Source: a virus
Direction: 5' to 3' (one strand)
Length of the DNA: 46,063 bases
Virus record (IMG/VR): IMGVR_UViG_3300021077_000115
Location: 1-46,063 of that record
Made by a program: the position numbers and the translations under genes. This document shows positions 1,570-44,400 of the stretch, in pieces. The notes under the pieces are model-generated. The model worked only from the letters and a program-made list of their open reading frames with translations. It searched no databases and had not been told where the DNA came from. Each line of letters starts with the position of its first letter. Positions within the stretch are counted from its first letter, which is position 1.

Positions 1570-2097
1570 TCATCCAAAAACGTTCATCAAACCAAAACCA
1601 AAAGCCTTCCCGTGCCCGATGCCAGTATGTACCACACTAGCAAATCTTTCAAGATCCGTCACGTTCAAAAAACCCGTCACAAACACTGATGAGTGACAAC
1701 ATTTCATTCCCTTGCGATCACTCACCATCGTACCTTCGTCAATGACCACCTTGGACCGAATATCTGCCCCAATGCCAGACAACTTACCATCTACCCAAGC
1801 ATGAAGCCGGTCCCGATAAACCGGAAACCTTCGTCTCTTGTTGGACTTGACCGCGTTGAGCCGAATCGCAAACTGTACGTCACCAGAAAGACTCGATAAC
1901 GCCTGATCGGTTGTCTTGGCGAATTGTATTTCAAAGTTATCAGCAAACTTAGGGTCAATTTCCAGATCTGTTTCCACTACCAACCGAGCGCCAACCTTTT
2001 GGAACAACAACTTACCATCGCCAGGGAAGATTTCCTTAGCCATTTGATGATTCTTGTATCCGTCCTCGTACGCCCGATGAATGATGTAGACTTTCAT
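1570..2097 (-). CDS. cas6: Cas6-family crRNA endoribonuclease-like protein (Cas6e/Cas6f-like), 175 aa.
   Basis: The C-terminus GIGHGKAFGFGLMNV fits the Cas6 glycine-rich loop GhGxxxxxGhG and resembles the Cas6e/Cas6f C-terminal G(K/R)xxFGFGLL segment. Its size fits Cas6e/f. It is the last gene of the operon headed by Cas3 and overlaps the upstream gene by 4 nt. Confidence 0.55.
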   Translation of the reverse strand: MKVYIIHRAYEDGYKNHQMAKEIFPGDGKLLFQKVGARLVVETDLEIDPKFADNFEIQFAKTTDQALSSLSGDVQFAIRLNAVKSNKRRRFPVYRDRLHAWVDGKLSGIGADIRSKVVIDEGTMVSDRKGMKCCHSSVFVTGFLNVTDLERFASVVHTGIGHGKAFGFGLMNVFG

Positions 2098-3026
2098 TGT
2101 TGAGCCTTGTGGTATCCAGCAACTACCATATCAAGCGTTGTGTTCTGCAAGTCACAAACCCGATCAATTCGGACCAAACCACCATCAAAAATAGTGGCGC
2201 ACCCATTGCCATTACCAAACAGACCCAACTCTTTGGTGAAAACTGGTATGCAAATCCGCCCATCTAACCGAATCACATCGCATACACCTTTAGTCACTAG
2301 CGTCCTGAGGTATGGGCCAAGACCTTGATAGCCAGCCTGATATAAACCATTATCCTTGTTCCCTTCTAAGAGCTTCGCCAATGGCTCACATCTACTTTCC
2401 CTAGCTTTAACCACCAGCTTATTAACCCTAGCATCCTTGCTTTTCAAGAGAGTGTTTGCAACCTTCTCAAACAGCATCTCCTCGGCATTGCCACCGCAAA
2501 TATCGCTAGCAACCACGACCAATTCTACATATAGCTCATCTGGTAAAAGGTATTTAAACCTAATCCAGCTTGGAATAGCATATGACCAGCTATTATGCAT
2601 ACACTTTCTAATAGTCATCTTCTCGGTTAGATATACTACGTTCCCTTCCTTATCCTCTTTTGTAGCATTGTCTATATGAACAAAAGAACGCTTGGCAATT
2701 GCGACGAAGTTACCATAACTATTTACACAGGTTGGACGGTACCTGCTGATTGGGCGCATACCACACAAAACCCTAATCACATTCTCAATAAATGTAGCGT
2801 GAATCGTGTTCACTTGTTGCTCGACCCATTGAGATTGGATTCTATTATTACGAGATTTACCAATAAATATTCGGTCATCCTTCGATCGGCTGGTCATCGT
2901 TCCATCTACATCCTTCCAACGCTTTGGAAAGATTCCCGCATTCTCAAACCTGAGCACTAATGCGTAATCGTATGGCGGCATGATTTCCCCTGCATGTAAA
3001 CAAGGAATTAAGGTTGATGGAGGCAC
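2094..3026 (-). CDS. Cascade-like subunit, tentatively Cas5-like (310 aa). Identity is inferred from position and size only.
   Basis: It lies between the Cas7-sized gene and cas6 in the same tightly packed operon. There is a Gly-rich segment LGLFGNGNGCATIFDGG near the C-terminus. I recognise no family-specific motif with confidence. Confidence 0.3.
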   Translation of the reverse strand: MPPSTLIPCLHAGEIMPPYDYALVLRFENAGIFPKRWKDVDGTMTSRSKDDRIFIGKSRNNRIQSQWVEQQVNTIHATFIENVIRVLCGMRPISRYRPTCVNSYGNFVAIAKRSFVHIDNATKEDKEGNVVYLTEKMTIRKCMHNSWSYAIPSWIRFKYLLPDELYVELVVVASDICGGNAEEMLFEKVANTLLKSKDARVNKLVVKARESRCEPLAKLLEGNKDNGLYQAGYQGLGPYLRTLVTKGVCDVIRLDGRICIPVFTKELGLFGNGNGCATIFDGGLVRIDRVCDLQNTTLDMVVAGYHKAQQ

Positions 3027-3030
3027 TGAT

Positions 3031-4107
3031 CTACTTTTTCTTTGCAGCTGGCTTGGCAGGTTTCTCTTCCTTCACCGGCTTCTCGTAGCCAAACTTCTTC
3101 TTGTAACTATCGCATTTTTGTAATGCCTCTTCCTGCAGCTTCACTTTGGTGTAGGCCGTTGCAAAAGACTCGCCATCAAAAGCGCTAACATCGAATTTTT
3201 TACCATCAAAAATCTCAACCCAACCATCTGGATTGCCGAATAAATCCTCCAGAGGGTCGCTGACGATCTTGATGCTCACCGACGCCGTCTTGGCGCTTCC
3301 AGTAACAGTTCGAACTACATTGAATAGCGCCAATCGCCGAAGAATGTTCGTGGTTAGGAATTTGACCTGTGCCTGCGTAAGCAAAATTCCACACTCAGGA
3401 ATATCATACACATCACCATTCTTCTGGAAGAACGCAGGCTCCGGAATTTCTGAGCCCATCCGCCCTTTCAGAAGCTCGCGATATCTGGCGGCGTAGTCTA
3501 GGTCGAAACTCAACCGGTCATGGACATCGCTAAGCGAAATGAATGCCAACTCGCTCACATCAATAGCCCCGGAAAGTTCATAAGTAGTATCGCCTCGAAC
3601 TTCTCGCTTGAAGAATGATGTTTCTGCCACGTCTTCCGTTTTGTTCTCGCCAGTTTTTGGTTGACTGTTCGAGTATGTCTCTAGCATCGGGGCCGAACTA
3701 GTCACTGCCCTGGCATAGGATAATGCAAATGCAGACTTTCGCTTCCAACTTGAGCGATTGTCACGAGCAAACATATACCCGCGCTCCAGAAATGCCGGAT
3801 GAGCCACCGTGCTGAGTAACAAACCATCATCATGCATGACATTCGGAAGATGAATGAACATACAATCCTCATACATACTGTGACGAATGCAGTCCGCTGA
3901 TATGACACCTACTTTTTTTAGGTATTCCCTATCGTCACCGTCACGCCCCACCTCTGGATAGTAACGACCTTTGCCAAAGGACACGTTGTTGTGCCAAACG
4001 CTTTCTACATTGCGCTGTCGGTTCCAAATAAAGCGTTGGTCGTTGGAATCGAAGTTGACAATCCCAGAACCTTCAATAACTGCCTTTATGAAAATTGATT
4101 TAATCAT
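3031..4107 (-). CDS. Cascade-like subunit, tentatively Cas7-like backbone protein (358 aa) with a Lys-rich C-terminal tail.
   Basis: It sits immediately downstream of cas3, 22 nt after its stop. Its size is typical of Cas7e/Cas7f(v). The C-terminal KKKFGYEKPVKEEKPAKPAAKKK tail is basic and nucleic-acid-binding-like. The assignment rests on operon context. Confidence 0.3.
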   Translation of the reverse strand: MIKSIFIKAVIEGSGIVNFDSNDQRFIWNRQRNVESVWHNNVSFGKGRYYPEVGRDGDDREYLKKVGVISADCIRHSMYEDCMFIHLPNVMHDDGLLLSTVAHPAFLERGYMFARDNRSSWKRKSAFALSYARAVTSSAPMLETYSNSQPKTGENKTEDVAETSFFKREVRGDTTYELSGAIDVSELAFISLSDVHDRLSFDLDYAARYRELLKGRMGSEIPEPAFFQKNGDVYDIPECGILLTQAQVKFLTTNILRRLALFNVVRTVTGSAKTASVSIKIVSDPLEDLFGNPDGWVEIFDGKKFDVSAFDGESFATAYTKVKLQEEALQKCDSYKKKFGYEKPVKEEKPAKPAAKKK

Positions 4108-4129
4108 GTTATCCTATCTGTTACTTTCT

Positions 4130-6508
4130 TCACACTCGCGCTTTGACGAGACCAAGCGTTGCATCGTAGTACCACGTAAAGATTGGTAGTGGTGTTTCTC
4201 CACAACGAGCAAATGGCTTCAGGTTTTCAACCGTTAGCCTCTTTGGTTTCTTCTTACCAAAGAACATTTTCGTTAGTTCGGCATAGTCAAACTCACCTGT
4301 GGCCTCTAACGATTCCCATACCGTTTTCAATGTAGAAGATTCTATTCTTCTTCTATTATCAGCAATCAGATCCTTCAGTTCGATGTCTTGAACATTGAAT
4401 GTGAAAGGGCACCAAACTCCAGTTGTTCTGTTTTTCACCACAATAAAACACGAACTCGAACTATTCCTCAGCGTCTTGGCAGTTACAACTTTACTCTTGC
4501 CACTCTGATGTTTGCGCGCCCTTGGGAAGAATGTCTTCAACTTATCAATTGATATCAGATACTTATTTTTAATAAACGCAACTAGCTCATCGTTGTAAAC
4601 CTTATTGAATTTGTTATACAATCGGTATAGGAAATCCAAATCAACTGGTTCGGATGCCTCGCCCTCTAACATACGGCTCCAAAGATCCGATAGATGACAG
4701 CTGTACCGTTCGCTGATGGCCGACCTCTCACCTTTATTACTCCTAAGTTTAAGCATGACGAGTTCACATACCCCGTCTTGTTCTCCCCATCGGTTGATTC
4801 TTCCGAAAGTTTGTATATCGGATTCTGGTGATTCTATGGTTTTGAATAGCCCTCTGAAGCTGATGTCAAGAGCGGCCTGTAGAATCGGCGCTGAAACCAC
4901 AGTGCCATTCTTATCACCACCCTTCCCAAATGACTTAAGAATTCCATTCATTATCGCATGGCGATCTGGTTCTCCGTAGTTACTATGAACGATGCTAGTG
5001 TATCCGTTGCCGTAGCACCCTTGAACATTTCTGATCGATGAGTACATTGTCAAAGAACCACCAATTGGGTGTTCAACAAAGTCTTCATCGAAAGATATCT
5101 TGTAAAGCTTCTTATGCTGTGCTAGATAATGTTCAGTTGGATTTGGAAGGATTTTTGTCCTTCTAGATTCACCTTCACCTTCCCAGAATTTATGCATTAT
5201 CGATGGGGTAGCTGAGAGTAGCAGTGTATGACTGTTCGCACATACCAGATTGCGCGCCCTCATATAGATGACAAACGCCCCAAACAAAGCCTCATCATTA
5301 AGGAATTCATGAAACTCATCAAGTACCACATTGCGAGCTGTAACATCAAACAACCTCGCAATCGATTTTGAATCAACCATTGGCGATAGAAGGTTGTCAA
5401 TATTGGTTACCACAATGTCACAACCACAATCTGGTACACTTGGTGAGTTGGTAGCTTTACGCTCTCCTGCGTGGTACAGTTCAATGGAGATTGTACCAAG
5501 TCCAAGGATATCAATCTCCTTCAATAGATTTAAATATACACCTTCAGCAACTGCATTTCTTGGGCATACCCAATACACCGGTCCGGACTTCTGGGCTCCC
5601 CACATCAAACCAACCAGCGACTTACCAAATCCCGCAGAACCTTTTACTAATGTCGTTCGTTCACAAGAGTTTACAATGTCCTTTTGAATCTGAAATCGTT
5701 CCTGGTCATATGTGATTGGACATTGAAAATTTTCGTACCTTATATCCCTTCCCTTAGGGAAGTATGAATCAGCACTATTTTCAATCAGGTCATCCAGCTC
5801 TTCTATCGATAGCTTGGATACAATGTGGTCGGAGAAGATAACGCAACTCCTGGCAATCATGCGATGAGCGTTGGTCAGGCTACTTTCATCACCATCATCG
5901 GTAAACAACCTTGGAATATTGCGAGGTTCGTCATCAACGTCATCCTCTAGGTACTTGGTGACATCAAATGGGAACTGAACAGACTTCAGAATACCATCAA
6001 TTGTCTCTGATATCTTCGTCCATTCGTTTTCATCGAATAGTTTCAGCTCGCCAATGACGGTATGTGTGTTTCTAGGAGAGGTTTGATCTAAAATCTCGTA
6101 CGAATTCAGCAACGTACCGTGATGCCAATAGATCGCCTGCGGCCCGATGTCTTTGAACCGAACACCACGACCCTTGGCCTTTGCATGAAATGTCGCATAT
6201 ACCCATGAAATCTCATTGTGCCTTGGATATTCATGCTGTCCAGAGTATTTAGGATAATGCTTCTGTTTATTCTCCTCGCTATAGTCACTAGCCAAGGAAA
6301 TGTTGTTAAAATATACGGTACACTTCCCAATGTCATGAAGGAATGCCGACAAACCAATCACGTTGATTAGATCGTCATCGGAAATCCCAAGGTGCTTGGC
6401 GCAATGCATAGCTAACATCATCGCACCAACGCAGTGTTTTGTAAGTTCTTGTCTGTGGTCTGAATTAGCTAGCATACTAAAAATCCTCTCCCTCTTTGAA
6501 CACCTCAA
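4130..6508 (-). CDS. cas3: Cas3: N-terminal HD nuclease domain fused to a DExH superfamily-2 helicase (792 aa as tracked). The track start is a TTG. A better ATG start lies at 6475, giving MLANSDHRQ….
   Basis: HD motifs are present: H…LHDIGK (AFLHDIGKC), YPRHNEISW and IYWHHG, matching Cas3 HD motifs II-V. Helicase motifs are present: motif I GSAGFGKS, motif II VLDEFHEF (DExH), motif III LLLSATP and motif VI QTFGRINRWGE. The ATG at 6475 sits 1 nt after the TAG of the upstream ORF (TAGTATG). Confidence 0.85.
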   Translation of the reverse strand: MRCSKRERIFSMLANSDHRQELTKHCVGAMMLAMHCAKHLGISDDDLINVIGLSAFLHDIGKCTVYFNNISLASDYSEENKQKHYPKYSGQHEYPRHNEISWVYATFHAKAKGRGVRFKDIGPQAIYWHHGTLLNSYEILDQTSPRNTHTVIGELKLFDENEWTKISETIDGILKSVQFPFDVTKYLEDDVDDEPRNIPRLFTDDGDESSLTNAHRMIARSCVIFSDHIVSKLSIEELDDLIENSADSYFPKGRDIRYENFQCPITYDQERFQIQKDIVNSCERTTLVKGSAGFGKSLVGLMWGAQKSGPVYWVCPRNAVAEGVYLNLLKEIDILGLGTISIELYHAGERKATNSPSVPDCGCDIVVTNIDNLLSPMVDSKSIARLFDVTARNVVLDEFHEFLNDEALFGAFVIYMRARNLVCANSHTLLLSATPSIMHKFWEGEGESRRTKILPNPTEHYLAQHKKLYKISFDEDFVEHPIGGSLTMYSSIRNVQGCYGNGYTSIVHSNYGEPDRHAIMNGILKSFGKGGDKNGTVVSAPILQAALDISFRGLFKTIESPESDIQTFGRINRWGEQDGVCELVMLKLRSNKGERSAISERYSCHLSDLWSRMLEGEASEPVDLDFLYRLYNKFNKVYNDELVAFIKNKYLISIDKLKTFFPRARKHQSGKSKVVTAKTLRNSSSSCFIVVKNRTTGVWCPFTFNVQDIELKDLIADNRRRIESSTLKTVWESLEATGEFDYAELTKMFFGKKKPKRLTVENLKPFARCGETPLPIFTWYYDATLGLVKARV

Positions 6509-17498: not shown

Positions 17499-17909
17499 CT
17501 ATTCCGTTGGGAATATACTCTCTGGCATTATTTGACCGATCCAATTATTAAACATCTCACCATCATTATGTTCGGTCTTCATAACAATATTAATCAGTTT
17601 GGCAAATCTTTTTTTAGATCGAAATGCTGATATGTGACAAAGAATATAATCTGATGTAGAGATGTCGGCAACACCTATCATTCTTAGTTTTGGATTGCCA
17701 TATGCTCTAAGATTGTTTCTTTGTCTTCCCTTGATCCATAATCCAAATTCTTCCGGATCTTTTATCACGCTCATTTGGATAGACCTTTTGGCAATGAATG
17801 TCCTCATATCACTCAATTGTTTATCCAAGAAAAGCAAATGAGTAACTGGAACTGCCGTCGCCAACACCACACCATCAACCACTACATCTGCAACCAAAGG
17901 GGCCGTCAA
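17499..17909 (-). CDS. Hypothetical protein (136 aa).
   Basis: ORF only. Confidence 0.4.
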   Translation of the reverse strand: MTAPLVADVVVDGVVLATAVPVTHLLFLDKQLSDMRTFIAKRSIQMSVIKDPEEFGLWIKGRQRNNLRAYGNPKLRMIGVADISTSDYILCHISAFRSKKRFAKLINIVMKTEHNDGEMFNNWIGQIMPESIFPTE

Positions 17910-18035
17910 AGTCCAGATATCTGAAACTCAGTGTGACTCGTTCATTAAGGATACTGTCCGGACAACCGCCGGGCCGCGCTTCCTTGCCGCTGCGTGGCAT
18001 TTCGCGCCTGCGAGCGTTCTTATTTCCCACAATGG

Positions 18036-18590
18036 CTACGCAAAATTGGCATCAGGTGGAAGCGAGCCGTAATATTCGGCCAGTGACGCCTTCGAAATTT
18101 CCGCACTACATCGTTCATCGGGCGCACACCCTCGACGAGCCTTGCGCCACGGATCTTCCATGTGAGTTAAGTCACTGAGCCACTGCGCAGACTTACTGCC
18201 ATAGTCACGAATTACCGCATCAATAGTTTCACGTGCATCCGTGCCGATCAGCGATGCGTTCCCCTTGACCCACGTGTTCACTGTGAATTGCCCACGATGA
18301 ACGGCGTAAAGTTCTGGCACCACGGGGCCATTTGCCCATGCTTCGATTCTCTCGTCGAATAGCGCCCGTTCGTCCCAAACGAGGGACCACGCTTGCGAAT
18401 AGTAGACAAGCTTTTGAAGCTTCATTGCGGAGATGGTTCCGCATTTCTCCAAAATGTACGCAGCAACGTCGTGAACTGAATTCGCCATTTTCAAATCGTC
18501 AATTCCTAGACAGATACGCCGCAGAATTGCCTCCAATAAGGAGTAGATTGCCTTCCTGACGGGCAACCGACCGATTATTCCAGTACTCAT
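18036..18590 (-). CDS. Panacea-domain (DUF4065, SocA-like) protein, a putative antitoxin.
   Basis: MKLQKLVYYSQAWSLVWDERALFDERIEAWANGPVVPELY matches the DUF4065/Panacea core (KLxYyaqgw…lf.e…AW..GPVvp.ly). The gene has elevated GC (~52%). Confidence 0.6.
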   Translation of the reverse strand: MSTGIIGRLPVRKAIYSLLEAILRRICLGIDDLKMANSVHDVAAYILEKCGTISAMKLQKLVYYSQAWSLVWDERALFDERIEAWANGPVVPELYAVHRGQFTVNTWVKGNASLIGTDARETIDAVIRDYGSKSAQWLSDLTHMEDPWRKARRGCAPDERCSAEISKASLAEYYGSLPPDANFA

Positions 18591-18895
18591 AGTCTCATCA
18601 CGTCGGCAGGACGCGTCAATCCATTGCGTGAAAAATCGAACCGATCCCTGCAGGTGGGGCTTGTCTCCGCGAGTCCAGCTTGTGCTAGCTTGACAATCTC
18701 GGGAGCATTTTGTTGAATGACTTTGCGCTGTTCAGGTTGCTTCAGCGTTGGGTCTTCGGTATGTGGCGCATATGTTGCCACAAATCCTGAAAATAAATCT
18801 GGCTTCTGCAAAACATGATGTGTCTTAGACAGATCTGCATAACCATTCTTCTTAGTACCATCTTCGATAGCAATTATCTGATTGAGCTTTGGCAT
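18587..18895 (-). CDS. Hypothetical 102-aa protein. It is a candidate toxin partner, co-translated with the Panacea-domain gene.
   Basis: There is a 4-nt overlap with the downstream Panacea gene. The two genes form an island with local GC elevation. Confidence 0.45.
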   Translation of the reverse strand: MPKLNQIIAIEDGTKKNGYADLSKTHHVLQKPDLFSGFVATYAPHTEDPTLKQPEQRKVIQQNAPEIVKLAQAGLAETSPTCRDRFDFSRNGLTRPADVMRL

Positions 18896-19030
18896 GTTTT
18901 AATCGACTTCTTTAATAACCTAGAGCTTTGCCGAGAGGCCTAAAGATTGCGGCGGCCAGCTGACGTTTGCCTGTAGGCGTGTGCCGAGCAATGAGTTCGT
19001 CCCGCATACTATTCATTGAAGTTGTTCCTG

Positions 19031-19071
19031 TCAATAAAACAATTGAGGGGCGGTGATATTCCGCCCCTCAA
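19031..19071 (-). terminator. Rho-independent terminator: an 11-bp perfect stem with a 7-nt loop, followed by a T-run on the minus strand.
   Basis: ttgaggggcgg-tgatatt-ccgcccctcaa at 19043..19071. The minus-strand downstream sequence is TTGTTTTATT. It sits 9 nt past the stop of the coiled-coil gene. Confidence 0.6.
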
Positions 19072-19079
19072 CCTATTAT

Positions 19080-30502: not shown

Positions 30503-31834
30503 ATGAAAGCATTATCCGCTGCGCTATTATTATTGGTAATGGCTTGTGGTTCTTCTGGAAACACAAATCAAACTATAGGAACTGTTTCAGTAGGCGGTTC
30601 AAATGTTACACAAAGCTCCAGCGGTAATACCGATGTAAGCTCTGGCAACACTGGCGGTGTCTCAACTGCTAGCTCTGGTGGCGATACAAGCTCAGCTGGC
30701 ACCATGGCCACAAGCACTGATGGACCTGGAGGCACGTCCAGCACTGGTGATACAAGCACAGATCCATCAATGAGTTTAGGCGGTTCGCAAGACTTTGCCT
30801 CAAGCGGTGGCGGCAGTTCAATGGATGTTGGTTCTGGTGGCGGTAGCTCAGTAGATGTATCAACTGGAGGTGCAGTGACAATAGATATACCAACCGGAGG
30901 CGGAAGCTCGATAGATGTAGCAACTGGCGGAGGAAGTTCTGTTGATGTTATTACGGGTGGCGCAAGCTCTATTGATATGCGAACTGGTGGTGGAACTAGT
31001 ATTGATCTGGCAACTGGCGGAGCACCTTCCATTGATCTCGGCTGCAACAGTGCGTCTCCTCTAAACCAAATAAACGTCTTCGTAACCATGGACGCAGCGC
31101 CCTCGGGCGCTGACACCGAAGGCAACATGTACGTTGGCGGTAATCTGACAGCCACGGGTAGTTACACCGTTGGCGCGAAAGACACGCTGGATTGCACCCG
31201 TTACTCATTGGTCGTGGGTGGGAACATCACGATCAAGGGCGGAAGCGTAAACGGCGGCAAGGCCGTTTATGGCGGAACCACCGCTAGTGTCAGCGGCGTC
31301 AGCTTTGCGTGTGACGGTTTGACGCGAGGCAAGGGCCCGGTTGACTTGGTAGCGTTGAAGGCAACGGTCGAAGAGTTGAGCATTCGATTGTCGAAACTCA
31401 CATCCAACGGCACGGTCACCTCAACCAGCGGCAAGCTGACGCTCACCGGCACGGACAAGAAGCTCAACATCTTCAACGTCACGGCGGCGCAGTTGAACGC
31501 CGTCACGGAAACCGTTGTGAATTTCCCAGCGGCCTCTGCTGTGGTCGTCAACGTGAGCGGCACAGACGTGGTCTGGGGCAACGGCTCCGTATGCCTCAAT
31601 GGGCAGTGTGGGGATAGCGATCAAGCGACTAACGTGCTCTGGAATTTCTACGAGGCTGCGACCCTCTACTCGACGGGTATGGCCATTCAAGGGTCTGTGT
31701 TGGCACCGTTCGCCACGCTCGATGGAGGCGGCGGACATATTGCGGGTCAGGTCATCGTGCGGTATCTAAAGGGCGGACTCGAATATCACCCCTACTACTT
31801 CGATGCGTGCCTCATGTGGACTTCGCTCGTGTGA
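30503..31834 (+). CDS. Secreted lipoprotein with a Gly/Ser-rich region of tandem 12-aa repeats and a C-terminal GC-rich domain (choice-of-anchor-A-like by eye).
   Basis: A lipobox LLLLVMAC|G. Eight imperfect repeats of GGGSS[MVI]D[VMIL]xTGG. A C-terminal NVFVTMD…GNMYVGGN…YSLVVGGNITIKGGSVNGG pattern. GC rises to about 60% from about 31040 onward. Confidence 0.55.
   Translation: MKALSAALLLLVMACGSSGNTNQTIGTVSVGGSNVTQSSSGNTDVSSGNTGGVSTASSGGDTSSAGTMATSTDGPGGTSSTGDTSTDPSMSLGGSQDFASSGGGSSMDVGSGGGSSVDVSTGGAVTIDIPTGGGSSIDVATGGGSSVDVITGGASSIDMRTGGGTSIDLATGGAPSIDLGCNSASPLNQINVFVTMDAAPSGADTEGNMYVGGNLTATGSYTVGAKDTLDCTRYSLVVGGNITIKGGSVNGGKAVYGGTTASVSGVSFACDGLTRGKGPVDLVALKATVEELSIRLSKLTSNGTVTSTSGKLTLTGTDKKLNIFNVTAAQLNAVTETVVNFPAASAVVVNVSGTDVVWGNGSVCLNGQCGDSDQATNVLWNFYEAATLYSTGMAIQGSVLAPFATLDGGGGHIAGQVIVRYLKGGLEYHPYYFDACLMWTSLV
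30803..31040 (+). repeat. Tandem 36-bp (12-codon) direct repeat array, about 6-7 units, inside the lipoprotein gene.
   Basis: Seen directly: …ggcggtagctcagtagatgtatcaactgga / ggcggaagctcgatagatgtagcaactggc / ggaggaagttctgttgatgttattacgggt…. Confidence 0.7.
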
Positions 31835-36514: not shown

Positions 36515-38491
36515 CTACTTCAATGCTGTTATTTCTGCGGTAAATCCACCAGATAATAGGGGAAATCTACACCAAGTATCGGCTTCTAGGCTGTGATTAT
36601 CGCAGTGCAAAGAAGGTGAAAATTTAATTCTTTTCCACTGGTTTCTTGACCACAGAGTGAAGAACTTTTTGACGTATGAAACTGCCAATGGATTTGTGAT
36701 ATCAGTCCGTTCACGACGCAGGCAATCAAGTACCTCTTGTGGTCCCTTCTTCTCCAGAATAGCCCATGTCTCGATGGCATCGAGGACTGTGTAAGGCATC
36801 AAGTCTTCTTCATCGGTTTGCCCCTGCCCTGGCCGCAGCTCAGCGGTTGGTTTCTGAACCACGATACCCTTCAGCGAAGAATAGGTCGTGACCATCGCAG
36901 TCAACCATTCGAGCAGGAAAGCCTTATCAATGCCGCCGATAGGCGCAATGGATCCGGCGGTATCACCATCCATCGTGCAGTAACCCACGGCCGCTTCAGA
37001 GCGATTGCTCGTTGTGATCAGGAGCTTGCCTTCGAGGTTGGCCACCATCCAAATGCCGGGAGCTCGTGCACGGGCCTGAATGTTCTGAAGCGCAAGGTCG
37101 TCCTTATCCCAAGTTAGCGGACGGCCTTCAACTTGCTCAGCCAACGCTGTGTAGCGCTTCACAATTGAATCGATGCTGATGCTCTTGAACTTGGCACCAA
37201 GCTGCTTAGCAACGTCTCTAGCTGCCTTGAGCGTTACCTTGGAGCTGTTCGATGTAGATTGATAAACGCACGTCAATAACTTACTCATGAGCTTCTTACA
37301 ATCAGATGGATCTTTATAGTTTGCGCCATGGCAAAGGTCGCCCAGGCCAATCCGATTGCAGGCCTCTTGTAGGCCAAGCTCTGAAGCTGCGCGCGTAAAC
37401 ATGATGTCAACCAGAACAGCGCATGCTGCTGAATCTGCTCCGCCGCTGAGCGATACCACGAAGCCTTTCGAATGAGACTTTTCCAAGTAGTCGAAGAGCC
37501 CAAGCGTAATCGCATTGGTGAACTCTTCATGCTTGGTGATTGAAGTGTCTTGAACTGGCTTCGTTACTTTCTCTTCGCTGTTTGCTAACTTACCACCACA
37601 CCTTATCATTCCATTAGCTTCAAGGTTTGGTGAGAAGCTTGCGGTACTGACAATTTTCGTAGTGGTCTTAGCCAGATCAATGACAGCGGTGGTTAGATTG
37701 ACCCTCTTCATATTCAAATAGGGGCCTCTAGCAAGCAGATCTCCACAGTTTGCGATGAGACAATCTCCGTCATAGATGGCTCGGCCTGCTTCATTACCAA
37801 GAAGATTGGCGTAGATGTACGTGACGTTGAATGCTCGCGAGCCCTCAACAACAAGACGTTCTCTGGTGACTCTCTTTCCAAAGGCAAAGTGAGATGCCGA
37901 AGGATTCAAGATGATATCAACCCCACGCTTTGCTAAAGCATTGCCTGGGCGCTCTGCAACAAAAGCATCCTCGCAGATCTCGAATCCAATATTGACTCCA
38001 TCAATATTGAAAATGAAATCGCCCATCGGCGCACCGCGCAGAGAAAGCCCCTTACTGAGCTGGCCGCGTATGGGAGTTGTTGTTCGTATGCCGCTTGGCC
38101 ATGGTTTGAACCATCGTGGTTCGTAATGAAGACCGTCACCTGCGAGATGTTGTTTGGGAACAATGCCAATAATCTCTTTGTCGTAAACGCAGACCATTAC
38201 ATTGTAGAGTGCATTATGTAGCAGGTACGGCACACCGAAACAGGTGAAGATGCCCTCGGTGCAAGGCAGTAAGTCTTGAAGCACATCCCAGGCACTATCC
38301 CTTACTGCCTCTGATAGGAAATGATCTTCGCAACCGTATCCGGTGATTGCCATCTCAGGCAAGCATAGGATTTTAACACCCTCTCTTTTGGCCTCGTAGA
38401 GGGCATCGATGACGTTCTTTTTGTTGCGCTCCCAATCGAGGGGAGTTTGGTTCAAAGATGCCGCGCCGACTTTGATGTTTGACATGAGCAT
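36515..38491 (-). CDS. nadE: Glutamine-dependent NAD+ synthetase (N-terminal CN-hydrolase/nitrilase domain plus C-terminal NAD synthetase).
   Basis: At 658 aa it has the long two-domain form. The N-terminal Glu/Lys/Cys hydrolase region is ILCLPEMAITGY…FEICEDAF. The PP-loop is VVSLSGGADSAACAVL (SGGxDS). Confidence 0.8.
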   Translation of the reverse strand: MLMSNIKVGAASLNQTPLDWERNKKNVIDALYEAKREGVKILCLPEMAITGYGCEDHFLSEAVRDSAWDVLQDLLPCTEGIFTCFGVPYLLHNALYNVMVCVYDKEIIGIVPKQHLAGDGLHYEPRWFKPWPSGIRTTTPIRGQLSKGLSLRGAPMGDFIFNIDGVNIGFEICEDAFVAERPGNALAKRGVDIILNPSASHFAFGKRVTRERLVVEGSRAFNVTYIYANLLGNEAGRAIYDGDCLIANCGDLLARGPYLNMKRVNLTTAVIDLAKTTTKIVSTASFSPNLEANGMIRCGGKLANSEEKVTKPVQDTSITKHEEFTNAITLGLFDYLEKSHSKGFVVSLSGGADSAACAVLVDIMFTRAASELGLQEACNRIGLGDLCHGANYKDPSDCKKLMSKLLTCVYQSTSNSSKVTLKAARDVAKQLGAKFKSISIDSIVKRYTALAEQVEGRPLTWDKDDLALQNIQARARAPGIWMVANLEGKLLITTSNRSEAAVGYCTMDGDTAGSIAPIGGIDKAFLLEWLTAMVTTYSSLKGIVVQKPTAELRPGQGQTDEEDLMPYTVLDAIETWAILEKKGPQEVLDCLRRERTDITNPLAVSYVKKFFTLWSRNQWKRIKFSPSLHCDNHSLEADTWCRFPLLSGGFTAEITALK

Positions 38492-38495
38492 TTCC

Positions 38496-40031
38496 TCAGA
38501 GCGAATTGAAATTAGCTAGGCGATTTGCTTTGCAGGCATCAATCAATGCTTGTGTGGCTGGTGAGTTGGCGATGGTGTTAATCCCTAATGCTGCCGTTTT
38601 GAAATCCGGTTCGAAGCCGCCGCGCTGGCTTCCTCTATCACTCAAGCAATAGTGGTTTGCGATGGCTTCCCCCTTCTGTCCGATGATTCCAACAGGAATC
38701 CCAATGTTGGCGTGCATTGGATACGGACGATAGATGACTGGAAGTCCTGGGGCAGACTGCTTGCTGTTTCCGGCCTCATCTCCAAATTTCATAGTGGCCA
38801 TGTCACCGCTCTTTGTAAGCTTCCAAACAGCAGCAACGTCATCGCGCCGGAACGTCGTCCACGTTGGCTCCACCAAGAATCCTCCGAAGCCGTAGGCTTG
38901 CCGATCTGGTGACCACTCCATCATCTCACGATACCTCTCGAACTCAATCGTCTTGTGCAGATTCCATCCGCTTTCCAAGATGAGCTGAGGCAACAGACCA
39001 AGACGCAAGCATTCTGTTATCGTGTAGAAGTAGTGGTTCTTGATTCGATCTTCTGAATCGAAACGAATGCCGGCATTGCGGTCTGGCCGCTCTTGAATTG
39101 CGCGCAGCGCTGCAGGGATTCCCGATCGAATAGAATCGAACGTGTCTGGTAAGTAGGAAATGAAACCAGGGAAACGATCACGCATTGTGATGAATGATTG
39201 ATAGTCATTGCCGAAGCGCTGAACATGCTCGTGCCCCATCGTGCCAACCGGAATCATCCCAAGCTCTTTGGCTAGATAGACATTCGATGTGCGCAGAATG
39301 CCTGCCTCTTTTATGGCGCTGAGAGCTATCCTGTGCTGTGCCATGCACGATACGGCACGCATACCAACCTCAAAGATCCGATCTGGATTTCCGCCAACTG
39401 CGTCCACCAAGGCTTTAGCTTTAGCCAAGATGTCTTGGTAGAACTCATCGGAGCGCACTTCAATTTCTGGTACCTTACAGCCAACGAGAGCGCATGTTGA
39501 GATGATGAGCTCCTTCTCTTCTTCACAGGTCGCAAGCATCTTTTGAGGCAGAGTATGCACCTTGCCCGCTGTTGCCACCTGGACAACGAAGTTGAGCATG
39601 AGTGTCGTTGGCTCTAGCCAACTAGCAACAGCTGATGGGCCTGTTGCCGAGAATGCCGGCTCTCGATTGTAGAACCAGGATCCTTCTGGAATGGCCGAGA
39701 CACTTACAGTATTGGCCAACGAGAATGCTTTGCGATACGCCGCGCCAACAGCGTAGGAGTTGGCTTCAAGGTATCTGTAATCTTCGGTAAGTTCTACCGT
39801 AGGGAAATCATTTGGCGGTGGGAATTCGTCAATTGGAAGAAGGCCTTTGACGTACTTCTCCGCGTCTATCGGCATGAAATGCCAGCCATAAAATCCACCG
39901 CGCCTATGAGTATAATAAAATGTCTCTGTTCTTAGTGGAAATCCAGCTTCGGCCATTGATAGTTTATATGCGTCGGTTTCTGTGATTCGTCTCATGATAG
40001 TATAATACCTCAAGCATAATTCGCTTGTCAA
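38496..40031 (-). CDS. Nicotinate/nicotinamide phosphoribosyltransferase-family protein (PncB/NAMPT type II PRTase). The sub-family is not resolvable by eye.
   Basis: The N-terminal TDAYKLSM resembles the TDxYK[LV]T motif. GTMGHEH is a phospho-His-like segment. Length is 511 aa. It is adjacent to nadE. Confidence 0.65.
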   Translation of the reverse strand: MTSELCLRYYTIMRRITETDAYKLSMAEAGFPLRTETFYYTHRRGGFYGWHFMPIDAEKYVKGLLPIDEFPPPNDFPTVELTEDYRYLEANSYAVGAAYRKAFSLANTVSVSAIPEGSWFYNREPAFSATGPSAVASWLEPTTLMLNFVVQVATAGKVHTLPQKMLATCEEEKELIISTCALVGCKVPEIEVRSDEFYQDILAKAKALVDAVGGNPDRIFEVGMRAVSCMAQHRIALSAIKEAGILRTSNVYLAKELGMIPVGTMGHEHVQRFGNDYQSFITMRDRFPGFISYLPDTFDSIRSGIPAALRAIQERPDRNAGIRFDSEDRIKNHYFYTITECLRLGLLPQLILESGWNLHKTIEFERYREMMEWSPDRQAYGFGGFLVEPTWTTFRRDDVAAVWKLTKSGDMATMKFGDEAGNSKQSAPGLPVIYRPYPMHANIGIPVGIIGQKGEAIANHYCLSDRGSQRGGFEPDFKTAALGINTIANSPATQALIDACKANRLANFNSL

Positions 40032-42519: not shown

Positions 42520-44400
42520 TCAGTTAATTTTAAGTTTCACAATGTCGCGCCGTCCGACTACATAAAGCCCATCGGCTGCGGCAAAAAGTCTTGACCCTGA
42601 ATTTACAAACGGCTCTGTGTCGGGGAACTCCTTCGCCACAACAATTTGTGCTCCATTGCACTTCACCTGAACTACACCATCATCGGTTGGGGCAAGAAGG
42701 ACATTGCCGGCAGCCGTTGCTCCACGAATGTTTGACAACCAGGAACCATCACCATGAACGGCCTCAGCTGAAGCTAAGACAGTCCCATCTTGTTGAATGG
42801 CAGAGCAGCGATTGATGGTCTGCCCATTCTCTTGAGATGATGTGAAGAACCAACAGAGCTTGTCGGTAAACGAACAGGAGGCATCTATCAACTGCCCTCG
42901 AATTCTTGGCACCTTGACGCTGTCATTGATGCCACGCGAGTCCGCTTTGAAAATGAATGCGATGTTCAATTCACCAGCGCGATAGAAACCAAACCCAAAT
43001 GTTGGGCCGACCCAAATGTGTGTCAGTCCGGAGATGACAGCTCCAATATACTCTGGTCCAAGTGGCGTGTTTCGATTCAAACGATCGTTGGTTGTCCAGA
43101 ATATGTTGTCAGCATTTGAATCAAACACCGGACGCTCTTGCACGATATCCATCTGAAGCTGTGTTGGCTTCTTGTTTGGTGTAAAGATGGCACCCATTCC
43201 ATCCTTACCAATAATCGTTGAGCTTCCCATTATGCGATATCTGAATCTCGGATCAATCTCGTGCTCAATAACAACGGATCGATCCTCTCGCCTGAATGTT
43301 TCTGCCTCATAATAGAGCCAGAGCATTCGTCCTTTTTGAACTGTTGCGAATACAATAGAACCAGTAGTATTGAACATCTGCGTCACGGTGACACTCTTCC
43401 TAACCGTCACCGTTTGAACAACGGCAATGGGTGGAGCCTTCACGCAGTTGGGACAATTCGGACGAGAATATTCTTGGCCACATACGTTACACTTTGTCCA
43501 GCGCATGTCTTCCAAGCACTTCACAGGGAAGACGCTTCGATTCCCTTGTTCGAAGATGCCGGCAAGATAATGGCACAGCTCATCTGATAGTGCGCTGTAA
43601 TGGATTGCCGTCTTAGGGTATCCAACTTCAGGATTGAATACGCTTATCTTGTGCAGGCCGCGCGCTGTATGGGCAACCTTCTTAGTCCTGTCAGCTGGCT
43701 TATAGATGCCGCCGTACGGATGAACGAAGAGCATGCACTGCATGAACATGACACAGAACGAATACCAATCAGAATCCGGTGTGTGATGCTTGATTAGTTT
43801 GGGCTCCTTCAAACTCGGATCGCACAGCAGTGGATCGATATAGGCCTGCGTGAACATGAAAGATGGGAAGCCTTCAATTGACGCACTGTCAATGTCAATG
43901 ATGTATGGCATATCTGATTTTGCCAGCACCAAAATATTCAGCGGATTGACATCACCAAGGATAACTTTGTGCGCATGAAGGGCAACAAAATCTTCATGGA
44001 TCTTCGTGAAGACATTTCTAACGTGATCATTTGAGATGCCAGCTCTAAACTCCTGGTCACCGTATTCAAGCAGAACGTTAGTGCCACCAATGAATGGCAT
44101 GCGGTAGCCGGCTATCTTCTTCGAATGATCGGTTGTAAATGCAAGCGCATCCGGAACGATAACACTCGGCGGCAAGTTCCTTGGAATGGCTGGAAGCTTC
44201 TTTTGATGCTGGTTGATACGCGCCGATGCCGCTTGCTGAGCCTCCGGCTTTCCTGCAAAGTCAGGATGGTCTGGCTCCTTGAATATCTTCAAGACTTTGT
44301 TATTGGGCAGGCCGTAAATTATTGCCTCGCCGCCCTCACCCTTTACTGAGTTTGGGGTTAGCCTGATCCTTTCCCCTTCGACATCAACCTCTTTAATCAT
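42520..44400 (-). CDS. Protein-kinase-like domain protein (Ser/Thr kinase fold) with a C-terminal zinc ribbon and large C-terminal domain.
   Basis: The Gly-rich loop is GEGGEAIIYG. VLKIF is the Lys strand. The catalytic loop LHAHKVILGDVNPLNILV is HxD-like. IDIDSA is DFG-like. CNVCGQEY…CPNC is also present. Confidence 0.55.
   Translation of the reverse strand: MIKEVDVEGERIRLTPNSVKGEGGEAIIYGLPNNKVLKIFKEPDHPDFAGKPEAQQAASARINQHQKKLPAIPRNLPPSVIVPDALAFTTDHSKKIAGYRMPFIGGTNVLLEYGDQEFRAGISNDHVRNVFTKIHEDFVALHAHKVILGDVNPLNILVLAKSDMPYIIDIDSASIEGFPSFMFTQAYIDPLLCDPSLKEPKLIKHHTPDSDWYSFCVMFMQCMLFVHPYGGIYKPADRTKKVAHTARGLHKISVFNPEVGYPKTAIHYSALSDELCHYLAGIFEQGNRSVFPVKCLEDMRWTKCNVCGQEYSRPNCPNCVKAPPIAVVQTVTVRKSVTVTQMFNTTGSIVFATVQKGRMLWLYYEAETFRREDRSVVIEHEIDPRFRYRIMGSSTIIGKDGMGAIFTPNKKPTQLQMDIVQERPVFDSNADNIFWTTNDRLNRNTPLGPEYIGAVISGLTHIWVGPTFGFGFYRAGELNIAFIFKADSRGINDSVKVPRIRGQLIDASCSFTDKLCWFFTSSQENGQTINRCSAIQQDGTVLASAEAVHGDGSWLSNIRGATAAGNVLLAPTDDGVVQVKCNGAQIVVAKEFPDTEPFVNSGSRLFAAADGLYVVGRRDIVKLKIN

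Follow-up and report, generated by a model that had tools for sequence, protein, structure and literature searches.

Probable capture of a Panacea-domain antitoxin gene, with a stub of its toxin gene, in the DUF7873 gene of a probable huge phage

Two overlapping open reading frames in a 46,063-nt viral contig (IMG/VR record IMGVR_UViG_3300021077_000115, positions 1–46,063, analyzed in full and referred to as the window) raise the question of whether a Panacea-domain antitoxin gene is paired here with a new kind of toxin gene. Both ORFs, 18587–18895 (102 aa) and 18036–18590 (184 aa), are on the minus strand and share a 4-nt overlap (ATGA). A preliminary description, which quoted the peptide KLQKLVYYSQAWSLVWDER...EAWANGPVVPELY (found within the 184-aa ORF), had read them as a co-translated cassette of recently acquired DNA in which the upstream ORF would be the toxin or an effector. 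The comparisons presented below point to another arrangement: it is highly probable that a fragment of a Panacea/RelE-like toxin operon has been joined into the DUF7873 gene of a probable huge phage, leaving an orphan antitoxin gene and a dead toxin stub.

The 184-aa ORF matched the Pfam profile SocA_Panacea (PF13274) over positions 1–112 of 113 (E 5e-17; 63.3 bits against a curated cutoff of 25.7 bits) as well as phrog_1281 (E 8e-38), and at least 7995 database proteins matched it at E ≤ 1e-10, which confirms the Panacea assignment made at the outset. The protein showed 60–71% identity to hundreds of proteins of about 143–150 aa, the best relatives being just 66–71% identical, and 59–69% identity to 12 aligned relatives, with all 48 invariant columns of that alignment kept. 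The family is very large and tightly conserved and was found in Acidobacteriota, Thermoanaerobaculia, Verrucomicrobiota, Deltaproteobacteria, and other groups. The window protein reached 46.1 bits with the SocA equivalog model (NCBIfam NF047745), whose cutoff is 190 bits; it shares the domain of SocA but is no SocA orthologue. More distant Panacea genes (34–37% identity) were found on many IMG/VR contigs of human-gut phage type (L011–L033), some of them without an obvious downstream partner and others accompanied by two unrelated ORFs of 81 aa and 91 aa. Such genes might encode further phage PanA proteins that are orphans or have a different partner.

In the family alignment the conserved start aligned with Met35 of the 184-aa ORF (ATG at 18488), and the 34-aa N-terminal extension from which the overlap arises was found to be unconserved. 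DNA similarity to related genes begins only at about 18490, and the shorter, 150-aa form was the choice of the gene callers on two of the four identical contigs. Given the start at Met35, the lack of conservation of the preceding 34 residues and the point at which DNA similarity begins, the 4-nt overlap is most likely accidental, and the co-translation proposed for the two ORFs is probably a coincidence of ORF extension; the overlap itself is real. The intact antitoxin gene, designated panA, was thus placed at 18036–18488 (minus strand; 150 aa from Met35) by the PF13274 match and the family alignment.

The upstream 102-aa ORF, earlier described as an unknown protein, could be assigned to a family over residues 1–77, which matched positions 1–76 of 244 of the DUF7873 profile (PF25283; E 2.4e-14). 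Of these 77 residues, 75 (97%) were identical to those encoded at L039:3001–3231, within the gene for an intact 244-aa protein on an 84.5-kb IMG/VR contig. Codons 1–77 of a DUF7873 gene are thus found at 18665–18895 (minus strand), a placement based on the PF25283 match, the identity to L039 and the end of the blastn homology, and the last 25 codons of the ORF are read-through into inserted DNA. The possibility that this 25-aa tail (RFDFS...ADV) is diverged DUF7873 sequence was rejected, since the HMM match does not continue beyond residue 77, and in comparisons with four relatives the nucleotide homology breaks off at 18664–18666. Another piece of the same gene, codons ~94–128 (ADVVVDG...TFIAK), was detected by PF25283 and blastn downstream of panA at 17787–17891 (minus strand), in a frame different from that of the N-terminal remnant; residues 6–41 of ORF 17499–17909 matched PF25283 positions 92–127, and the DNA showed 77–87% identity to L039, L049, L050, and L051. 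Both pieces exceed the cutoff of 27 bits (54.1 and 41.7 bits), but in two frames and over profile positions 1–76 and 92–127 only; they are fragments of a DUF7873 member and not an intact one. A tblastn search with the full-length DUF7873 proteins of Gordonia phage Phendrix and Pseudanabaena phage PA-SR01 recovered the same two pieces. The window residues belong to the same family as these phage proteins (e.g., Phendrix gp144 and PA-SR01 QIW88563.1, a hypothetical protein of 254 aa), but family members are single ORFs of 243–265 aa, whereas the window copy is in pieces.

Synteny with L039 further showed that the downstream phage gene (17499–17771, minus strand; 90 aa), a homologue of L039:4216–4467 (BLASTP E 5e-13), is fused in frame to the middle DUF7873 remnant through a second deletion of ~830 nt. 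This second break lies at 17787, and DUF7873 codons 129–244 are gone together with the following intergenic region; the window copy therefore lacks codons 78–93 and 129–244. All four syntenic relatives (L039, L049, L050, and L051) carry an intact DUF7873 gene of 244–247 aa, the proteins of the last three being 88–92% identical to the window, and genes of full length (243–265 aa) were present in 56 of the 58 other loci that are readable end to end (51 of 53 metagenomic and all five viral). Comparison of the stump with L039 gave a dS of ~1.0, a dN of 0.011 and an omega of 0.011, and the DUF7873 gene was therefore strongly constrained until very recently. Measured against how far these phages have diverged, the insertion is young. 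The low omega fits a very recent disruption, and the stump may keep some residual function.

Some further DUF7873 loci deserve mention. The gene at L008:6001–6223 (ENA GROS21 scaffold_13848) contains an in-frame TAG (PSES*IVQQ...) at a position occupied by a sense codon in relatives, with homology continuing beyond it, and this phage may use TAG recoding. On three short contigs (L007:750–1054, L086:1357–1707, and L093:639–995) only the N-terminal part of DUF7873 was found, with breaks at about aa 79, 73, and 109, respectively, two of which lie within a few codons of the insertion site in the window. Past its break, L007 ends in a tRNA-like acceptor/T-arm minihelix (CAGGGAA...CTGGTTCAAATCCAGCTCCCTG), at which ARAGORN called no tRNA. 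The three breaks could coincide with the edge of a domain, reflect a hot spot for recombination or stem from chimeric assemblies. As the window, L007 and L086 each keep only the N-terminal module, codons ~73–79 might be a recurrent breakpoint, which is a weaker, additional reading.

The DNA between the two DUF7873 remnants was delimited as a foreign insert of 772 nt at 17892–18663 (minus strand; boundaries ±2 nt) by alignment against L039, by the breakpoints relative to the four relatives and by GC content. In the pairwise alignment with L039 it replaces 48 nt, i.e., 16 codons (MWN[IV]VATKDIGNC[ST]AK), of the DUF7873 gene. In blastn comparisons, homology to L039, L049, L050, and L051 stopped at 18664–18666 and restarted at 17879–17891; positions 18664 and 17891 are 773 nt apart in the window compared to 48 nt in the three relatives that restart at 17891. 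The GC content of the insert was 0.528 compared to 0.37–0.40 in the 5-kb flanks, and among windows of the same size taken from 7–30 kb, only 0.4% reached this value. At third codon positions the GC content was 0.54 for panA, 0.38 for the DUF7873 part of the 102-aa ORF and 0.34–0.44 for neighboring genes. The steps in GC and GC3 coincide with the breakpoints relative to the four syntenic relatives and mark the insert as foreign and little ameliorated, which bears out the suggestion of recently acquired cargo. The GC-elevated island that had been proposed for 18036–18895 was in part upheld: GC is raised there (0.50, compared to the ~52% claimed), but the island occupies 17892–18663, extending 144 nt past the Panacea stop and leaving most of the 102-aa ORF outside. 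The junction arrangement was 100% identical in four separate assemblies and is therefore not an assembly chimera.

The first 175 nt of the insert (18489–18663, minus strand) are donor DNA from upstream of panA that is non-coding in the conserved reading, as judged from patchy DNA similarity to the regions upstream of panA in L036 and L035, e.g., TTGGAGGCAATTCTGCGGCG compared to TTGGGGGCAATTCTTCGGCA. A promoter scan of this leader found no consensus promoter. Upstream of the DUF7873 stump, a consensus scan alone indicated an intrinsic-terminator-like hairpin (19041–19073) followed by a promoter-like TTGACA-17-TAGTAT (19006–19034), both on the minus strand within 19006–19073. The promoter-like site is the likely start of a phage transcript that would read through the stump into panA.

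The other end of the insert was found to contain the start of a toxin gene. In relatives, panA lies 3–7 nt upstream of, or overlaps, a small toxin gene; a partner gene of 142–157 aa, whose product ends in ...LWWDPxHxVCP, was located directly downstream of panA in seven of the seven related contexts examined (L009, L010, L035, L037/38, L044, L045/46, and L047/48). BLASTP and a partner HMM identified a stub of this cognate gene, its first ~46 codons, at 17893–18030 in the window (minus strand). The stub showed 47% identity to the L035 partner (BLASTP, E 1e-10), and the HMM, built from six partners with the window sequence left out, matched the 46-kb window only there (E 7e-6; HMM positions 6–50 of 149). 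As in the relatives, the stub starts 5 nt past the panA stop. It terminates exactly at the junction with the middle DUF7873 remnant; the ORF (17875–18030; 51 aa) runs past it out of frame into DUF7873 sequence and then reaches a stop.

The partner family itself proved to be large, comprising at least 2299 representative clusters in an exhaustive profile search compared to just three matches in a word-indexed protein search. It has neither a Pfam match nor a Pfam model, PDB sequence searches with partner profiles gave nothing, and matches to MAG6450_fam and NsnC were below threshold. An AF2 model from a single sequence was useless (pLDDT 39.9) and an 87-sequence alignment was needed. The resulting model supports a predicted RelE/YafQ/HigB-like alpha/beta fold for the partner of the relatives; an RNase activity is putative. 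Compared to the RelE/YafQ/HigB/YoeB mRNA interferases of the RelE/ParE or BECR superfamily, the modeled partner has an additional N-terminal extension of ~55 aa. A published account (PMC12065111) classes the PB-BECR1 domain of Menshen NsnC as a YafQ-like BECR RNase and assigns it an H-R-H triad; the partner differs from these enzymes and from PB-BECR1 in having no sequence-level Pfam or PDB match, and none of the core is found in the window. The RelE-like core comprises residues ~59–144 of the partner model and the window stub ends at residue ~53, so that no toxic core is left in the window. With the toxin gene reduced to ~46 codons, the locus is not a complete TA module, nor a functional TA pair.

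The locus can be compared to the PanA-PanT (Panacea/DUF4065) type II TA systems (Kurata et al., 2022; PMC8832971). The window antitoxin is likewise a single-domain Panacea protein, 60–71% identical to members of a very large family, but here only ~46 codons of the toxin gene are left, and the module is lodged within a disrupted phage gene. In PanAT loci the antitoxin gene more commonly comes first (PMC8832971), and the panA-partner order of the relatives fits this. A full pair of panA and RelE-like partner was found on L037:1–6100 (Bryobacterales MAG, JADJWL010000003.1) within a small integrated element that also encodes two integrases, a primase and a major capsid protein. This element is satellite- or PICI-like and shows the type of mobile element that carries such modules.

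That the 772 nt are a self-splicing intron or homing-type mobile element with a Panacea ORF, with DUF7873 functional after splicing, is extremely unlikely: the insert does lie inside a conserved gene, is GC-richer than that gene and includes ~280 nt of non-ORF sequence, but Rfam gave no match, either with the gathering threshold or with E ≤ 10, the site lacks 48 nt of exon, the insert breaks off at its 3′ end at an arbitrary point within the truncated toxin ORF, the C-terminal half of DUF7873 is also deleted, and the two remnants are in different frames. One plausible splice, joining AGL to VSDIWT, was considered and rejected, as the same bases encode in another frame RYLDFDGPFG, the conserved N-terminus of the partner toxin.

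That the 102-aa and Panacea ORFs form a translationally coupled cassette, with the former as a new toxin or an effector, is very unlikely as well. This reading could draw on the ATGA overlap, on the existence of toxin-upstream PanAT arrangements (PMC8832971) and on the strong constraint on the N-terminal 77 aa relative to L039 (omega 0.011). However, the ORF consists of 77 DUF7873 codons and 25 read-through codons, DUF7873 proteins elsewhere are 243–265 aa, and the overlap needs the unconserved 34-aa extension. A search for the 102-aa protein beside Panacea genes elsewhere found no Panacea or partner gene within ±3 kb of DUF7873 at any of 72 other loci, and this Panacea subfamily already has a conserved partner, on the opposite, downstream side in all seven contexts. 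A false lead is thereby removed, and the locus offers no new Panacea toxin partner.

Capture of an operon fragment by the phage accounts for the anatomy, and the sequence comparisons show the following steps. The donor would be a higher-GC bacterium, or one of its mobile elements, with an operon of panA-panT type in which the antitoxin comes first. Illegitimate recombination put a 772-nt fragment, carrying 175 nt of upstream sequence, the whole antitoxin gene and the first ~46 toxin codons, into the conserved accessory gene DUF7873 in place of 16 codons. That gene was destroyed, its N-terminal 77 codons running into the insert to give the apparent 102-aa protein and its middle 35 codons being left in another frame, and a second deletion removed its C-terminal half. 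The further steps are inferred: a phage promoter ahead of the dead DUF7873 gene probably drives panA, and if selection keeps panA, its product would bind and neutralize a host RelE-like PanT released in infection.

The window around this locus is probably of phage origin, on the strength of its IMG/VR relatives, the presence of DUF7873 in cultured phages and phage-typical accessory genes; no phage structural genes were found in the window. Type I CRISPR-Cas-like genes are present at 1570–6508 (minus strand), among them Cas3 (HD, DEAD, and Cas3 C-terminal domains; 4130–6508) and a Cas7/DevR-like gene (3031–4107), and no CRISPR repeat array was found beside them in 1–1700. Positions 1–1500 have a GC content of 60–73% compared to ~43% elsewhere in the window; both strands carry ORFs that overlap here, and short repeats rich in GC are present. 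This stretch might be of foreign origin, result from a join made during assembly or contain a gene of low complexity. A gene for an ice-binding-like adhesin domain protein (30503–31834, plus strand; PF20597, E 4e-58) coincides with a further local peak in GC (0.49–0.57) and may represent a second acquisition of cargo. At 36515–40031 (minus strand) an NAD synthase gene (NadE with a CN-hydrolase domain) adjoins a nicotinamide phosphoribosyltransferase-like (NAMPT-like) gene (phrog_448), a pair that, by analogy, resembles phage NAD+ reconstitution counter-defense modules; a protein-kinase-like gene is located nearby at 42520–44400.

In this contig, whose phage origin is suggested by its IMG/VR relatives and gene content, the antitoxin gene is intact and lacks its cognate toxin. 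T4 Dmd is a phage-borne orphan antitoxin in counter-defense, and escape phages of PhiTE are said to have captured ToxI. Dmd is cited as a phage orphan antitoxin in PMC8832971, and orphan antitoxins in phage counter-defense have been documented for DarG-like enzymes against DarTG1 (PMC11825919) and for a DarG2-like protein of a chimallivirus (PMC13309987). The window resembles these DarG-like and DarG2-like cases in that a phage genome contains an antitoxin without its toxin, taken up from a TA locus through recombination; it differs in that a visible toxin stub records the capture. No literature account of a Panacea-domain orphan as phage counter-defense was found. By analogy, the orphan PanA may tentatively be regarded as a counter-defense antitoxin against host RelE-like PanT. 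A fuller proposal is less likely than not: the captured Panacea antitoxin would have been domesticated by a huge phage as a counter-defense against host RelE-like PanT abortive-infection toxins, with the capture caught almost in the act; the words "almost in the act" refer to the toxin stub and the un-ameliorated GC, which still mark the donor operon.

There is an even chance that the same anatomy holds an inert insert, i.e., a recent illegitimate-recombination scar of host or mobile-element DNA from an infection, decaying in a dispensable gene. This would agree with the un-ameliorated GC and GC3, with a toxin stub still 47% identical to relatives, with the two deletions that have wrecked the surrounding gene, and with a 175-nt leader without consensus promoter. 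Furthermore, as all four copies are identical, population variation is absent, the within-lineage dN/dS of panA is unmeasurable and constraint cannot be shown. Un-ameliorated GC and a recognizable toxin stub point to a recent event, so that an intact 453-nt ORF would be expected even without selection. Set against a scar are the completeness of an antitoxin ORF with every family-invariant residue, beside a toxin cut before its catalytic core, which is the outcome that counter-defense selection would favor; the fixation of the allele in four separate assemblies; and the other counter-defense-like cargo of the window, the NAMPT and NAD synthase pair. The complete antitoxin with its dead toxin, the fixation and the nearby cargo lean towards an orphan antitoxin, and the youth of the event leans towards neutral debris.

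Read as an orphan antitoxin gene, the locus would, modestly, be one of a known kind carried by phages. What it adds is a scar in which the capture can still be seen, and a partner family that is large, unnamed and RelE-like. This Panacea-associated family, uncharacterized and predicted to be RelE-like, merits its own toxicity and neutralization test. For phage biology, the locus represents a clean, datable case of orphan-antitoxin acquisition, in which a single illegitimate-recombination event kept the antitoxin and beheaded the toxin, and if the orphan PanA is indeed active, the idea of orphan antitoxins as counter-defense would be extended to the Panacea domain.
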